DNA from: an uncultured Pirellulales bacterium | GTDB lineage: Bacteria; Planctomycetota; Phycisphaerae; Sedimentisphaerales; Anaerobacaceae | Assembly: GCA_964569935.1 (NCBI GenBank) | Contig: CAZMWN010000002.1 | Coordinates: 1-37,756, forward strand | Length of the DNA: 37,756 bases | Direction of reading: 5' to 3' | Shown: in pieces, positions 9,538 to 31,418 of the stretch | How positions within the stretch are numbered: the stretch's first letter is position 1 | How the letters are laid out: each line of letters opens with the position of its first letter | Program-made: the position numbers and the translations under genes | The notes under the pieces: generated by a model | What the model was told of the DNA's origin: nothing | What the model saw: only the letters and a program-made list of their open reading frames with translations | The model's database searches: none

Positions 9538-12500
9538 ATGAAGAAGAAAATAATCGTTATTATAATTATTCTTATTTTTGTGGCGTCCGTTTACGCCGCC
9601 GAAGTCAAGTGGTCGGCAATGGCAACCAAAAGCAATGCTTCTTCGGACGATTTGACGTTGATAGTCGATGACCCCGGCGGGACGCCTACATCTTATGCAA
9701 TAACAAGAGATAATTTTATTAAAAGCTGGACAGGTGACGTAAATATAGCCACGGTTGGTACGATAGGCACGGGAACGTGGAATGGAACGGCAATCGACAT
9801 TTCCGATTATACGAACCTTGCTGTTGTCGATTTACTTTCATTATCAGACGATACTATCGATGCGAATACGGCGGCAATAGTAGAAGACGACGCCAAGCAT
9901 CTGGCTACTAATGAACAAATTTACGACTTCGTGATTGGATTAGGTTATATCACCGCCGACCCCAATACTCACGACGCCGTAACCTACGATACGAACATGG
10001 CAATAATCTTCAGTCTTACCAATCAGGTTATTGAAGTTAATATAGCGACCCCTACAAACGGAAGGGACGATGCCTTATCGACTTCGGATGACATTTACGA
10101 CTGGGGAGTAGCGGCATTTCAGGTTTTGGACGCGAATTTGACTGCTATTGCGGCGATTACTTATGGTTCAAAGGGAAATTTGAGAAATACAGGAGAAGGG
10201 GCATGGGACATAGACGCCAACAGCTATTCACTCAGCAATCACGACCATTCAGGAACTTACGAACCGGCGGACGCCAATTTAACTGCTATAGCCGCATTAA
10301 CATACGATTCGACCGGCTTTTTGCGTAACACAGGAGAAGGCACATGGGATATTGACGCCAATAGTTATCAATTGTCCGATGCCAATCTGACAACTCTTTC
10401 CGCTCCAACCGCATGGCGATTATTCTATAGCGATGGTGATTCCATTATTCAACAGCTTGCTCTTGGAACGGACGGTCAATATCTTAAATCCAACGGTGCA
10501 ACTTCCGCCCCGACATTCGATACGCCCGGCGGTTCCGGTGATATGCTCAAATCGACTTACGACGTCGCAGAGGACGGCTATGTCGATGGTAACGACACCG
10601 CATACGATGCTACGAGCTGGAACGGCAATATTAATGCTCCATCGATGAATGCAGTTTATGATTACTTACATCAGATAGATTCCGATGATGATGGTTCCTT
10701 AGTGGATGAAAGCTGGTGGACAACATGGAAGCTGGACGATTGGGCTTCTCCCGATGATAATACCGACCTTAACGTCTCAACTTCCGCTCACGGCTTGATG
10801 GTAAAACTACCGAACGATTCAACAAAAGTATTCGATGGCTCAGGTTCGTGGGTTGATGTGGAGGACTTATCAGATGAGATAGCGGCTGGTATTGCCGAAG
10901 GTGAACTCAACAATTCGATAATTGTTTCCGATGATATTAAGGACGGTGAAGTTGATGTCTCGGATGATACTAACCTGACTGTTGTTGATTTACTTAAATT
11001 AACGGACGATTCGATAGATGCGAATACGGCGGCGGTAGTAGAAGATGACGCTAAACATCTGGCGACTAACGAACAAATTTACGATTGGGGAGTGGCGGCT
11101 TTTCAGCCTCTTGAATCAACGTTGACCGATATAGCTGATGGTACTATAGCAGAAAACTTAGTGAATACAGACAATCCCTGGGCAGACGATGAAGTTGCAG
11201 ACGATATAACGGCGAGCAGTTATCTTGATTTATCGACTTACGACAATGCCGAGGACGGCTTTGTAGATGGTAATGATACTGCCTATAACGCTACGAGCTG
11301 GAACGGCAATATCAATGCACCTTCGATGAACGCCGTAAGAGATAAGATAGAGGCGCTTCCCGGCGGCCACGATGCAGTGACGTTAGATACCAACATGGCG
11401 ACTATTTACACTTTGACTTCACAGGCCATTGAAGTAAATATCGTAAGTCCCACCGACGGCAGGGACGATGCTATCTCGACGTCAGACGATGTTTATGACT
11501 TTGTTATAGGTCTTGGATATATCACGGCTACGTTGACTGAGGAAGAGGTTGAAGACTTCGTCGGTGGGATGTTAGGTGGAACAGAGACCCATATTTCGGT
11601 GACTTATCAGGATGATACCGGAGATATTGACTTTGTAGTTTCTCCTTCATCAGTTGCCGGGGCAATAGGAGCGGGTGAATATGCTGATAACACGATTAAT
11701 AACGCAGACTTAAACTGGTCGGACATTACATATCTTTCGGACACCGGAAAGTTAGTCGTAGGCGACAATGAGAGCACAAACGAAAACAATCTCATCGCTT
11801 TTATTGCCGATGCTAACGGAGCAGGGAACGAGATTTTAGAGACTGACGGGGACTTTCATTATAATCCCTCGACGGGTACGGTAACGGCTACGGAATTTGT
11901 TGGCGGAGGAGCGGGATTGACGGCTGTGGATGCTGCTACCGGCGACTCAGCAACGGATTTCTTCGACGCCGGCGAGATTGCCGATGATCGTATTAGCAAC
12001 ACGCTGACTTCAAGTACATGCACTGGCAATGCAGCTACCGTAACGACTAACGCCAATCTAACAGGTGAAGTAACCTCCGTTGGTAATGCAGCGACAATAG
12101 CCGATAGTGTAACCGTAACGGGATGGGTATTAGGGACGTCTTCAGCGACTCAAATAACTTCTCCTACTCTAATTACCGACCTTATAGATACTACCGGTGC
12201 AGCGGATATGGACTATGGTAGCGGTGATGTTACCGACCATACTTTCATTGCCGATGGCGGAACGGCTGTTATCGACGGCTCCTTCCAGTTCCCGGATGCG
12301 GACGGTTCGCCTTCCGTTGTAGGGGAATTTCAATACGATAATACCGTAACTGGAATAAAAGACGGGACTCTCGTATGGTATGACGATGATGAAGTAAGAT
12401 ATTTAGTCGATGTAAACGTTCTTCCGAGCGACGATGATTTCGTAGTCTCTTACGATGCCGATAATGATATGTTCTATATGAAAACCGACGCCGACTCCGG

Positions 12501-27810: not shown

Positions 27811-28683
27811 ATGAAAATTGCGTATATTAAAAAACGGTTTCATAGTGGTTCATTAGAAATAATTGACCACGCAAACGATATAATTGAGGAATATCAACAA
27901 GAAGATTACGACCTGACTTTGCGTCAATTGTATTATCAGTTTGTAGCACGGGATATAATTCAAAATAAGCAATCGGAATATAATAGGCTCGGTTCGATTA
28001 TAAATGATGCAAGGCTTGCAGGTTTAATAGATTGGGATAGTATAATTGACAGAACGAGAGAGTATGAGTCTTTGTCTCACTGGAACAGCCCGGCAGATAT
28101 TCTCAAATCAGCAGCAAAAAGTTATAATGTTAACACAAGGATAAACCAAAATTATTACATAGAAGTTTGGGTTGAAAAGGACGCTTTAGTTGGTGTTATT
28201 GAACAAGCATGTGACCCATTGGATGTGGGCTACTTATCTTGTCGTGGATATGTTTCTCAATCTGAAATGTGGCGTTCTGCACAAAGATTTAATCGTGCTA
28301 AGAATTGGCATAACTGTATTTTGTTACATTTTGGTGACCATGACCCTTCGGGCATAGACATGACCCGTGATATTGAAGATAGATTGAATCTCTTTGATGC
28401 TGAACTTGAAGTTTCAAGAATAGCTCTTACTATGGAACAAATAGAAGAATTCAATCCGCCACCAAATCCAGCAAAGACAACTGACAGTAGATACAATTCA
28501 TACATAAAAGCTTATGGAGAAGATTCTTGGGAATTGGATGCGCTTGACCCTCGAATCTTAACCAAACTGATTAATGAAAATGTGAATTATTATACAGAAA
28601 AGAAAAAACGAAATACTCTTATAAAAAAACAAGAACAAGAGAGAAAGCAAATATTTGAAATTGCAAATAAATTTATTCTCTAA
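27811..28683 (+). CDS. stand-alone Topo VI subunit A / Spo11-like protein (5Y-CAP + Toprim; Mini-A type)
   Basis: 290 aa with AAGGTG RBS. LTLRQLYYQFV (R38, Y41/Y42) fits the catalytic-tyrosine motif. IEVWVEKDAL (E122) and HFGDHDPSGIDM (D176, D178) fit the Toprim acidic motifs. Confidence 0.6.
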   Translation: MKIAYIKKRFHSGSLEIIDHANDIIEEYQQEDYDLTLRQLYYQFVARDIIQNKQSEYNRLGSIINDARLAGLIDWDSIIDRTREYESLSHWNSPADILKSAAKSYNVNTRINQNYYIEVWVEKDALVGVIEQACDPLDVGYLSCRGYVSQSEMWRSAQRFNRAKNWHNCILLHFGDHDPSGIDMTRDIEDRLNLFDAELEVSRIALTMEQIEEFNPPPNPAKTTDSRYNSYIKAYGEDSWELDALDPRILTKLINENVNYYTEKKKRNTLIKKQEQERKQIFEIANKFIL

Positions 28684-29358: not shown

Positions 29359-29678
29359 CTCCTGAGATCCAAAACTTATTATCCGTCTTAGACATGACAG
29401 AAATGGAACAATTTCAATATATACATAAATTATATCCTATTACACACGAAATATGTAGTTCCGTTGAAAGAAGGAAACGTGCTCTTGCCGACCTCGCTTT
29501 CCGTAGCAGGGATGAAGCAGTAAAAAAAGATATTACCAAATACATAGATGCTGAAAACATGGTAAAGAGTTACGTGCTATTACAAACGAGAAAAGAACTT
29601 ATTTGGAATTACCATTCAAAGCCCATCCACTGGATCATATGTTCTCTTATCGCCATGATATTGGCAGGGAAAAAGTAA
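29355..29678 (+). CDS. hypothetical protein with C-terminal TM segment
   Basis: 107 aa from ATG 29355 (ATGA overlap). C-terminus is IHWIICSLIAMILAGKK. Confidence 0.5.
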   Translation: MTPEIQNLLSVLDMTEMEQFQYIHKLYPITHEICSSVERRKRALADLAFRSRDEAVKKDITKYIDAENMVKSYVLLQTRKELIWNYHSKPIHWIICSLIAMILAGKK

Positions 29679-29679
29679 A

Positions 29680-30000
29680 ATGGACAATACACTAAATATT
29701 CTTCCAGGTCAAGATGAAATAAGAACAATAACTCAAAAGCGTTTACGTAGAAAATGTGAATTTTGTGGAGAAGAAGCACATTACAAGCATACTTGGTTAC
29801 TAAAAGGTACACGTTCTAATCCAGCGAGCAAAGCCTATAGAAGGGATGATTGTTCTTGGTGTGAAGATAGTTGTACTTTCACGTGCCGAAAATGTAAAAA
29901 TAAAGCGAGGCCACCGGAAGGTTATGTTGATTGTAGTATATTTCCTGCTTCGGAAACATTTTCTCACATTTTTTTATTTTGGGTAACAATTGAAAAATAA
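29680..30000 (+). CDS. Cys-rich (zinc-binding?) protein
   Basis: 106 aa with several Cys pairs (CEFC, CSWCEDSC, CRKC). Confidence 0.5.
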   Translation: MDNTLNILPGQDEIRTITQKRLRRKCEFCGEEAHYKHTWLLKGTRSNPASKAYRRDDCSWCEDSCTFTCRKCKNKARPPEGYVDCSIFPASETFSHIFLFWVTIEK

Positions 30001-30034
30001 ATAAATAGCTCTCATACAAGTAAATAGAGAAAAA

Positions 30035-30918
30035 CCGAAGTCCTGTGTCGGCGTGGTAGCGTCGGGTTGGGTTGATACGCAAACAGGAACCCATAGGAAC
30101 CTTGAACTACTAATAAAGAGGATTCCGTTCCAGATGTTTATGGTGGCGCAGGGTGGGGAATCCTGCACACAGGGCTTCGGTTTGTCGAAGTCGTGGCAGC
30201 GGGACGGCTATGTGCAATGGAGAAAATGCCCGCAAGGGAACTCATTATGAACCTGAGCAGACAGAGGTCAGGGAGAGTTACACGGAGGGGCACACATGCA
30301 AAGAGCGCAAAGCTTTGCCGCTGCCCACTTCTTCGGCAAATTATAGGGCAGGGCAAGCACATAAACTGTTAATCGAGTCCATTGATTTCAACTCTACCTA
30401 CGCCCTGCCTTTTAGAAAAAAAGTCGGCAATGGCGTGTATGTGGAAATGGCGAACCAGTTCAGAATGTAACCTAAAACAGTACACGGCTCAGAATTGCTT
30501 GATTGTCGGTCGAAAGCGGCCTGAGATAATAGCCGGATAAAACTTAGGCGTCCAGCAGGGACAACAATAACGCACGGCGACACATTACAACCTGTTGAAG
30601 GGTCAATTCTATTGCCGACTTTCTGAAATATGCCAGCGGCTGACAAGTTTGTCCCAAACTCTCCGTCCTATTTTATATGTGGCCACGACAAGTTGTGGCT
30701 TGCACTCAGACACGGATCAGTTACAAGCTGGCTGGCTTTTTATAGACCTGCAGCAATATAGGCAGATACAGAAACCAGCAGAAATGCGGACACCGGAAAC
30801 GCTTATGCTTGCAGGTCTTTTATAGAAGACATCACCCTCTCCTCCTTTGAGAGGCCAGGCGTAATGCTTGGCTGGCGACTGTGGCCATGGATGGTCAATT
30901 GGCCACTTTCGCTTTTTT
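30035..30918 (+). ncRNA. candidate giant structured ncRNA (GOLLD/ROOL-like class or novel); boundaries approximate
   Basis: About 0.9 kb with no credible ORF, only short overlapping ORFs on both strands and no RBS. It looks G+C-richer than the flanks by eye. It has many hairpins and long-range complementarities, including a perfect 12-mer pair (30420-30431 with 30611-30622). It ends in a terminator-like hairpin and a tRNA-like element follows 14 nt later. Confidence 0.55.
30881..30918 (+). terminator. terminator-like hairpin at the 3' end of the ncRNA candidate
   Basis: gtggcca (30881-30887) pairs with tggccac (30900-30906) around a 12-nt loop. The T-rich tail tttcgctttttt follows. Confidence 0.55.
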
Positions 30919-30932
30919 GAAAAGTTAATATT

Positions 30933-31054
30933 CCGGGTATAGCTCAGTCAGGTAGAGCACCGACCTCGCGGTCGGAGGGCGTGGCCGTAACCAATCGGGA
31001 CATAGTCAATAGCTTAAGATGTTGTCTATGGAGGTTCGAATCCCACTGCCCGGC
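30933..31054 (+). tRNA. tRNA-like element: cloverleaf interrupted by a 49-nt insert in the T stem, 6-nt anticodon loop (possibly pseudo or a processing handle)
   Basis: Acceptor stem ccgggta/tgcccgg. D arm gctc-agtcaggta-gagc. Anticodon arm ccgac-ctcgcg-gtcgg. Variable loop agggc. The T arm gtgg[49 nt]g-ttcgaat-cccac is perfect only if 30985-31033 is removed. No CCA is encoded. Confidence 0.45.
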
Positions 31055-31069
31055 TTTGAAAGGAATAAC

Positions 31070-31306
31070 ATGACAAGAGTAAAGATAAAAAAAGATTCAG
31101 AAAATCCTGAAAGTGTTGAATTATTAGCAAAGAGTGTGATTCAAGTTGCGGAAGGATTTGAAAAGTTAAAAGATGTAAAATTAACAAATAGAGCAATAGC
31201 AGTTCTTCTTCAAGACGGTATAGGTTCTACAAAAATAACAAAAAAACAAATATATCTTGTTCTTGATGCTTTGCCACAATTAAAAGCATGGTATATAAAA
31301 AAATAA
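31070..31306 (+). CDS. hypothetical protein
   Basis: 78 aa from ATG 31070, with AAAGGA upstream. The track ORF start at 31019 would overlap the tRNA-like element. Confidence 0.55.
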   Translation: MTRVKIKKDSENPESVELLAKSVIQVAEGFEKLKDVKLTNRAIAVLLQDGIGSTKITKKQIYLVLDALPQLKAWYIKK

Positions 31307-31315
31307 AAGAACATG

Positions 31316-31418
31316 CTGAGGACAAACTGAAAGGATTCTGCGGAAAGAACTAAAAATTTATTATGGGAATTACCAGGTGTTATCCTTGAATTTTAACCAC
31401 GGACGGCCTCAGTTTTTT
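31316..31418 (+). terminator. structured element closed by ctgagg/cctcag and followed by T6 (terminator or small RNA)
   Basis: 31316-31321 pairs with 31407-31412. An inner helix pairs aaggat with atcctt. The T-run is at 31413-31418. The element lies in a 185-nt gap between ORFs. Confidence 0.3.

Follow-up and report, generated by a model that had tools for sequence, protein, structure and literature searches.

The window analysed here, the whole 37,756-nt stretch of contig CAZMWN010000002.1, is the complete 37.8-kb contig of a tailed phage with all genes on the + strand, and it carries at 30933-31054 an element resembling a transfer RNA (tRNA), with a T stem that is split by 49 nt and an anticodon loop of only 6 nt. 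The first 27 kb encode portal/adaptor, major head and tail proteins, and 3′ of these structural genes follow a Toprim-like protein, two exonucleases, Erf, an HNH endonuclease, SSB and RusA. Between the gene end at 30000 and the gene start at 31070 lie about 1.07 kb without a credible open reading frame (ORF), with a G+C content of 0.49 compared to about 0.35 in the surroundings, and the element forms the 3′ end of this non-coding stretch. Besides it, ARAGORN and ORF scans found no other tRNA and no tRNA-related enzyme in the window, and there is no integrase among the scanned window ORFs. Sequence near-identical to the window was found in at least 17 salt-marsh metagenome runs; relatives were found neither in INPHARED (blastn of 29900-31400) nor in IMG/VR (by protein or exact DNA patterns). 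Judged from its letters, the locus is a tRNA-derived element of unusual architecture, for which decay is a serious possibility. Its parts are:

30933-30939, + strand: 5′ strand of the acceptor stem, CCGGGTA, beginning with C1; 7 bp with 31047-31053, including a U6-G67 wobble and C1-G72
between the acceptor 5′ strand and the D arm, + strand: T8 and A9, read from the sequence
30942-30958, + strand: D arm GCTC-AGTCAGGTA-GAGC with canonical A14, G15, G18, G19 and A21
30960-30975, + strand: anticodon-like arm CCGAC-CUCGCG-GUCGG with a loop of 6 nt
30976-30980, + strand: variable loop AGGGC, C48 opposite G15
30981-30984, + strand: GUGG, distal part of the T-stem 5′ strand (positions 49-52), able to pair with CCAC (31043-31046)
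30985-31033, + strand: 49-nt insert between T-stem positions 52 and 53, two hairpins and then GAG
30985-30998, + strand: mini hairpin CCG-UAACCAAU-CGG with a 3-bp stem (from folding)
31001-31030, + strand: hairpin B, CAUAG-U-CAAUA-GCUUAAGA-UGUUG-U-CUAUG, 10 bp with an 8-nt loop, followed by GAG
31034-31046, + strand: G53, T loop UUCGAAU and T-stem 3′ strand CCCAC (sequence, Rfam and ARAGORN)
31047-31054, + strand: acceptor 3′ strand UGCCCGG and discriminator C73; no encoded CCA, next base U

An earlier note on this DNA had read the acceptor stem, U8/A9 and the D, anticodon, variable and T arms by hand, and all of them were recovered at these positions. The same holds for the absence of an encoded CCA, as the discriminator C at 31054 is directly followed by TTTGAAAGG. 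In the window copy all 21 stem pairs are intact and the core tertiary positions are present (U8, A14, G15:C48, G18, G19, A21, G53:C61 and U54-U55-C56-A58); the D-arm columns A14, G15, G18, G19 and A21 are invariant in an alignment with phage tRNAs. Since contigs from at least eight independent sequencing runs carry the identical element sequence, the 6-nt loop, which was also checked base by base, is not an assembly error and is as real as the note had claimed. According to folding, this loop can additionally pair C32 with G37, which yields a 6-bp stem closed by a UCGC tetraloop.

Recognition of the element and position of the interruption

The match of the Rfam family RF00005 spans precisely 30933-31054 and model positions 1-71 of 71, and scores 34.2 bits against a gathering score of 29; the E-value is 0.0013 if the whole window is searched and 6.8e-5 within the 1.9-kb neighbourhood. 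It is the sole Rfam family that passes its threshold in the window and locally the sole meaningful one at E <= 10, and its alignment places about 50 nt as an insertion ahead of the T arm. ARAGORN reports no tRNA in the native window, and no tmRNA either. Once 30985-31033 is cut out, the program recognises a cloverleaf of 73 nt, labelled "tRNA-?(Arg|Ala)(cg)", in which the two-base anticodon reflects the 6-nt loop. We also deleted every single stretch that leaves 71-78 nt and raised the ARAGORN threshold stepwise: the last survivors were the deletion of 30985-31033 and its equivalent shifted by 1 nt, and no alternative with a 7-nt loop scores as well. For the insert-deleted RNA, the cloverleaf is the minimum-energy structure (-33.7 kcal/mol). 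Thus, ARAGORN, the deletion scan and folding all bear out the proposal of the earlier note that loss of the 49 nt restores the T stem and a 73-nt cloverleaf, and the split-T-stem parse is the best single-deletion parse in the ARAGORN scan. The relaxed and intron modes of ARAGORN, which the note had recommended as a check, offer a different solution, a tRNA-Leu(UAA) with a 47-nt "intron", which we rejected because of its mismatched anticodon stem and two T-stem mismatches.

Two further parses were considered and discarded. The first is a class II tRNA, which has its extra arm between positions 44 and 48 and in which the interruption becomes a long variable region and GGAGG/CCCAC the T stem; this local alternative has two adjacent mismatches, as the note had it, so that three of five positions pair, and the stringency scan prefers the split stem. 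The second takes hairpin B as the true anticodon arm and would have an 8-nt loop, an 11-pair stem and no T stem left. In the native RNA, the split-stem fold has an energy of -39.5 kcal/mol, the alternative -40.6 and the minimum-energy structure -43.4, values that do not settle the choice between the parses. Directly after the anticodon stem, AGGGC and GUGG provide a canonical 5-nt variable loop and four T-stem bases, with GUGG exactly where an uninterrupted tRNA has its T-stem 5′ strand. The chance of such a placement is about 1/100, which speaks for an originally intact tRNA gene that was split between positions 52 and 53.

Measured against a standard tRNA, the four-stem cloverleaf and its tertiary bases are all there if the 49 nt are looped out, the 7-nt anticodon loop with U33 and a purine at 37 is replaced by the six bases CUCGCG, too few for decoding, and the T stem is not contiguous over 5 bp, with GUGG and G53 lying 49 nt apart. 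The element is a genuinely tRNA-derived one. As to where it came from, phage tRNA-Pro genes have 75-78% identity to the insert-deleted 73-mer along almost all of its length, with other isotypes somewhat lower, and in the alignment the acceptor and T arm look like those of tRNA-Pro; the closest are those of Xanthomonas virus PB119, Stenotrophomonas phage Philippe and the Synechococcus phages S-WAM2 and S-RSM4. A genome scan for a parent tRNA gave as its sole match an unrelated tRNA-Thr in a tRNA array.

The insert alone folds with -13.0 kcal/mol (z = -2.4), and neither the rest of the window nor the fetched loci contain another copy. It is bordered by an imperfect direct repeat, GTGG ... ATGG. 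Intron_gpI has no match at E <= 10, and 49 nt in a T stem are far from the at least 200 nt of a group I intron, whose usual site is the anticodon loop. A bulge-helix-bulge (BHB) motif, which has two 3-nt bulges with a 4-bp helix between them where exon and intron meet, could be drawn by hand in relaxed form only, as CGUG/UAUG with two G-U pairs and the bulges GCC and GAG; it excludes hairpin B and has no outer helix. As side observations, the loop of hairpin B (31012-31019) reads G-CUUAAG-A, a 6-nt palindrome flanked by purines and thus the layout of a kissing-loop dimerisation site, which is expected by chance in about 5% of 8-nt loops. Its CUUAAGA is also an anticodon loop of the tRNA-Leu(UAA) type, and a related phage, locus L075, has a tRNA-Leu(UAA).

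A diverged copy and the slot of the element

A diverged copy, about 85% identical, is present in the salt-marsh metagenomes that hold the window phage. A contig of 182 nt from run X11 can be aligned to 30939-31040, where it shows 15 mismatches and a single gap. The gap stems from an additional T behind 30964, where the anticodon loop begins, and the insert has no indel. Six of the 15 mismatches are readable, that is, located more than 31 nt from the ends of the aligned pieces. These are 30972 T>C in the anticodon stem (pair 30-40, U40>C), 30979 G>T, by which the variable loop reads AGGTC, 30984 G>T, which changes G52 (pair 52-62), 30999 G>A, 31005 G>T in the outer stem of hairpin B (pair 31005-31026), and 31009 A>G, which turns an A-U pair of hairpin B into G-U. 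Upstream of the element this contig reads ...TTTGAAAACTTAATAACGGGTA. A contig from run X8 aligns to 30996-31047 with eight mismatches and continues TACCCGATGAGCGAAAGCCC...; its acceptor 3′ strand is UACCCGA, so that U6-G67 becomes U6-A67 and the pair is kept. The diverged copy has A72 opposite an apparent A1 and a 7-nt anticodon-loop region, apparently without U33, which makes this region non-canonical in both copies. Because a copy that is about 15% diverged also has the insert, the insert was inherited, and because the two copies have different flanking contexts, the element has been moved and kept. Divergence within the element, at about 15%, is no lower than in the flanks.

The surroundings of the element are variable as well. 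A contig of run X3 joins 30923 to 31310 through 277 other bases, with the element and the following gene, orf78, missing, and an X11 contig departs from the window sequence after 30923 and begins a different small gene. These contigs define one further feature:

30924-31309, + strand: swappable cassette of the tRNA-like element and orf78 (X3 and X11 contigs)

Since a near-identical phage variant is without it, the element is dispensable. The closest orf78 homologue locus (L075/L076, 78% identity) has the same building blocks in another order. In L075, a canonical class II tRNA-Leu(UAA) lies directly 3′ of a AAGTTAATATT motif that also precedes the window element, and then come a 36-nt sequence (86% identical to 30691-30726), a structured tail, a terminator and the orf78 homologue. 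The tRNA-Leu of L075 and the X8 copy are both followed by TTGAGCGAAAGC (also given as TGAGCGAAAGC). The flank motif GAAAASTTAATAW was considered as a phage promoter and rejected, as it is not enriched in the window (8 matches versus 8.4 expected). Taken together, these observations show the element in the manner of an accessory tRNA-gene cassette, placed in a slot that is filled by a real tRNA in relatives.

Neighbouring features and interrupted tRNA genes of other phages

Three features flank the element:

30691-30726, + strand: solitary CRISPR repeat AGTTGTGGCTTGCACTCAGACACGGATCAGTTACAA, depth 100-185x compared to 3-7x for the phage
30880-30918, + strand: hairpin GUGGCCA...UGGCCAC plus U run, similar to an intrinsic terminator, its end 15 nt upstream of the element
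31070-31306, + strand: orf78, a small conserved phage protein of 78 amino acids, Shine-Dalgarno sequence AAAGGA at 31058-31063

The earlier note had placed the element beside a candidate large non-coding RNA in a neighbourhood fitting GOLLD and ROOL, and this did not hold up: neither these nor any other large-RNA family matches in 29500-31400, even at E <= 10, and a solitary CRISPR repeat was found instead. The repeat is 36 nt long (GTTGTGGCTTGCACTCAGACACGGATCAGTTACAA) and lies on the coding strand of the phage (context 30660-30925), followed 3′ by a hairpin-rich structured tail and then the terminator. In the salt-marsh runs that hold the phage, the same repeat forms high-depth arrays with 25-33-nt spacers, and contigs at 30691-30726 go back 33-36 nt via 25-33 unique bases (spacers). 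The high depth and the array-type joints imply that a host-type CRISPR repeat is present once in the phage. None of twelve spacers taken from the salt-marsh arrays matches the window. Single copies of the repeat occur in three other phage contexts at four loci, namely L075 (1259-1294), L076 (691-726), L082 (1332-1367) and L083 (2754-2789, - strand). L082 and L083 are IMG/VR phage contigs in which no tRNA adjoins the repeat, so that the repeat RNA and the tRNA or tRNA-like gene are not an obligatory pair. In consequence, the idea of the note that the element serves as a handle for the upstream RNA is not supported in the form of a conserved handle. In L083, a consensus TTGACA-17-TATAAT promoter has its expected start about 20 nt upstream of the repeat. 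By analogy with solitary repeat units described as RNA anti-CRISPRs (PMC10651486), the repeat is a candidate RNA anti-CRISPR or orphan CRISPR RNA.

Upstream of the repeat, 30000-30690 is a G+C-rich stretch of about 700 nt without credible ORF or Rfam match. Other salt-marsh contigs hold diverged copies of 30139-30177 and of 30202-30313, the latter with single-base indels, as expected for a non-coding RNA. In other members of this phage group, comparable G+C-rich non-coding stretches lie upstream of orf78 homologues in L012 (1530-1800, with the T-loop-like motifs GGTTCAACTCC and CAGGTGCAACTCCTG) and L006 (3700-3950), and adjoin the solitary repeat in L083 (reverse complement, 10377-10650). Further upstream in the window, the Toprim-like neighbour (27811-28683) has homologues in quite different contexts or on contigs that are too short.

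The Shine-Dalgarno sequence of orf78 begins 4 nt after the element. The protein has no Pfam or PHROG match and 127 homologues of 76-81 amino acids that start at the same position; among eight groups of homologue loci compared, only L075/L076 share the architecture, with a normal tRNA-Leu. Two public sources start the gene at an ATG at 31028 or 31019, inside the element (products of 92 and 95 amino acids). The homologues and the Shine-Dalgarno sequence support the 78-amino-acid start at 31070. As standard tRNA finders skip the element and gene callers start an ORF inside it, similar elements are probably under-annotated in phage metagenomes.

A metagenome scan with a D-arm...T-loop pattern retrieved other interrupted tRNAs only, and neither the window element nor its relative. 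Many phage and metagenome tRNA genes, mostly in tRNA arrays, have an insert of 41-59 nt that interrupts the anticodon stem on its 5′ side, behind nt 28-30 (L023 3880-4000, L051 9718-9823, L052 346-464, L056/L057, L060/L065, L062 5898-6008, L027, L058, L054, L066 and L074). Removal of the insert gives high-scoring canonical tRNAs, including Lys-UUU (L023, L051, L056), Asn-GUU (L062), Ile-UAU (L060/L065), Ile-GAU, Ser-GCU (L052) and one with a CUA anticodon. A 5′ CGUAA, a hairpin and the motif ACAGCAAY recur in several of them. These interrupted phage tRNAs match no Rfam ribozyme or intron family, and a literature search for them turned up no description. L021 holds a phage tRNA (1926-2059, with an identical copy in L026) whose anticodon, UUA, would pair with the stop codon UAA. 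It has C1-G72, and its variable region contains about 58 nt of inserted sequence, folded as a long and irregular arm; another tRNA of this array, at 155-289, also bears an insert. L039 (610-736) and L044 (618-743) hold tRNA-like elements with the D arm of the window element and a CCCC-UCGUAU-GGGG stub. Their interior comprises about 65 nt, hairpin and T stem covary between both copies, and the "acceptor" is continued by about 13 bp of stem in which the flanks pair, so that these may be closed tRNA-like domains rather than tRNAs.

It seems unlikely, although conceivable, that short non-group-I intervening sequences of 40-60 nt are a recurrent and so far undescribed feature of bacterial-phage tRNA genes; the T-stem insert would then be one type and the inserts at nt 28-30 with ACAGCAAY another. 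If this were true, phage-infected bacteria would hold an undescribed RNA processing or splicing activity, or the tRNAs would work with extra arms.

Interpretation and comparison with known systems

With a probability of roughly 0.4, we read the element as a tRNA-Pro-type phage tRNA gene that has turned into a non-decoding tRNA-like cassette, a processing module for RNase P and RNase Z. It would be transcribed on the + strand together with its neighbours by read-through of the terminator at 30880-30918. Host RNase P would recognise the "elbow" of acceptor and T arm and cut the 5′ end, and RNase Z would cut the 3′ end, as expected when CCA is not encoded and a U follows C73. The location of the element, 15 nt behind the terminator and 4 nt ahead of the orf78 Shine-Dalgarno sequence, would suit such processing. 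In this way the upstream RNA and the orf78 mRNA would be parted, and a stable product of about 122 nt, still with the insert, would be set free. It would be no adaptor in translation, and the acceptor/T-arm elbow would be what matters in it. The preserved cloverleaf favours selection, since the rough neutral probability of no lost pair or conserved base would be about 0.02-0.1 for an inactive gene that carried the insert through half of the 15% divergence, a rough estimate that depends on the branch lengths.

A number of points speak against this processing module. Nearest-neighbour energies do not favour the split-stem fold, the divergence of the element matches that of its flanks, and 49 nt without indels would be weak evidence at about 15% divergence. 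In the diverged copy, 30972 T>C and 30984 G>T would break pairs unless they are compensated at unread positions, and A1 appears to face A72. The element is dispensable (X3 and X11 contigs), and where it stands with respect to the upstream RNA varies (L075). A dedicated handle role finds no comparative support, as two phages with the repeat have no tRNA nearby. Finally, an insert at 52/53 lies in the region contacted by RNase P, RNase Z and EF-Tu and could abolish recognition.

Some of these points would equally suit a decaying pseudo-tRNA, which we regard as possible: a tRNA-Pro-type gene with a 49-nt T-stem insertion and the loss of 1 nt from the anticodon loop would be drifting without function and survive only through youth or by hitch-hiking with orf78. 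Each of the two lesions is expected to be inactivating, ARAGORN does not call the native sequence, the window has no other tRNA or tRNA-related enzyme, a near-identical variant does without the element, and the divergence, with G52>T, U40>C and the apparent A1/A72 mismatch, is as high as in the flanks. However, the insert is older than the split of about 15%, and yet the stem pairs and tertiary bases of the window copy are intact, which drift would achieve with the low neutral probability given above. Moreover, the copies have moved and been kept in different flanking contexts, and both of them, not just one, have a non-canonical loop region. A removable, non-canonical intervening sequence that leaves a 73-nt tRNA, by a mechanism undescribed for bacteria and phages, is quite unlikely. 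It would explain why exactly 49 nt restore a perfect T stem and a canonical variable loop, and the pattern scans found many array phage tRNA genes with 41-59-nt inserts and perfect exons; as short non-group-I inserts recur in phage tRNA genes, they are presumably dealt with somehow. The spliced product, however, would keep the 6-nt loop, or in the diverged copy a 7-nt region apparently without U33, and the other interrupted genes differ in insert position and in their motifs (CGUAA, ACAGCAAY). Moreover, the insert is far below group I size and has no Intron_gpI match, and a BHB drawn by hand requires G-U-rich pairs and precludes hairpin B. The context looks bacterial: there are Shine-Dalgarno sequences, a relative has a sigma-70 promoter, and the CRISPR repeat resembles those of type II.

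We consider it very unlikely that the element is a tRNA-mimic decoy or sponge, acting alongside the CRISPR-repeat RNA against a host defence or toxin that recognises the acceptor/T arm. The preserved cloverleaf core with a dispensed anticodon would fit, as would the location in an early, accessory and swappable region beside a solitary repeat of the RNA anti-CRISPR kind (PMC10651486); furthermore, phage tRNAs are known counter-defence factors (PMC11555353). Nevertheless, this rests on the neighbourhood, with no defence gene or target identified, the known counter-defence by phage tRNAs replaces cleaved tRNAs and requires a functional anticodon, and repeat and tRNA or tRNA-like element are not linked in L082 or L083. 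Highly improbable is a recombination scar, in which a mobile element once integrated into the T arm of a phage tRNA gene left the 49 nt behind. The T arms of tRNA genes are common integration targets and GTGG ... ATGG surrounds the insert, but this repeat is no clean duplication, with AG intervening before G53, the scanned window ORFs include no integrase, and the insert is structured and common to the diverged copy. In the same vein, the earlier note had judged an attachment-site remnant unlikely for want of an integrase, and we agree, since both tRNA halves are present as well.

What the element would mean depends on these alternatives. If its RNA is made and kept, as in the preferred reading of a processing module, it would show that a tRNA scaffold tolerates a large T-stem expansion and can do without an anticodon, and it would be a clean natural case of a tRNA in a non-translational role in the early/accessory region of a phage. 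If the insert is removed, it would reveal an undescribed route of tRNA splicing in bacteria or their phages, and if the element is a mere pseudogene, the finding is ordinary.

Among known systems, the neighbourhoods of GOLLD and ROOL resemble the locus in having a tRNA-like gene beside a long G+C-rich non-coding stretch in a phage, whereas the window matches neither family and its upstream region has a solitary CRISPR repeat. Non-canonical BHB introns of archaeal tRNAs occur at non-anticodon positions including the T arm, and their removal restores the cloverleaf (PMC4090602). In contrast to these introns, which need a BHB motif and the archaeal splicing endonuclease, the window offers only a forced BHB in a context that looks like that of a bacterial phage, as indicated by its Shine-Dalgarno sequences, its Erf, RusA and SSB genes and the TTGACA-17-TATAAT promoter in the relative L083. 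The interrupted tRNA genes of phage arrays likewise have a 41-59-nt non-group-I insert and are missed by ARAGORN, and RF00005 scores them at 41-52 bits with a long insertion. They have it elsewhere, after nt 28-30 (variable region in L021), and differ further in their canonical 7-nt loops and in the motifs CGUAA and ACAGCAAY, common to several of them and absent from the window element, in which no deletion at nt 28-30 equals the stringency of the best one, after nt 51/52. To our knowledge, no tRNA or tRNA-like RNA interrupted at 52/53 has been described in bacteria or phages.

For a non-decoding role, the tRNA-like domains of the bacterial Y RNA YrlA and of tmRNA offer a precedent, as both keep the acceptor/D/T core for processing enzymes while the anticodon arm is replaced or truncated. 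The ends of YrlA are closed by a long Ro-binding stem and it is encoded beside rsr, whereas the flanks of the window element are not complementary and no rsr gene was found in the window; a tmRNA has a tag reading frame, and ARAGORN detects no tmRNA in the window, in which no Rfam family other than RF00005 passes its threshold. Phage tRNA-Pro genes differ in their 7-nt loop UUUGGGA (anticodon UGG), contiguous T stem and A73, compared to CUCGCG, the 49-nt insert at 52/53 and C73 in the window element, and with respect to the bacterial tRNA-Pro identity rules, C1-G72 fits while C73, the absent G36 and the loop do not. Nevertheless, these genes share the acceptor type xxGGGTA ... TGCCCGx with the element (with C1-G72 in S-WAM2), and their D arm and T loop are identical to those of the element.

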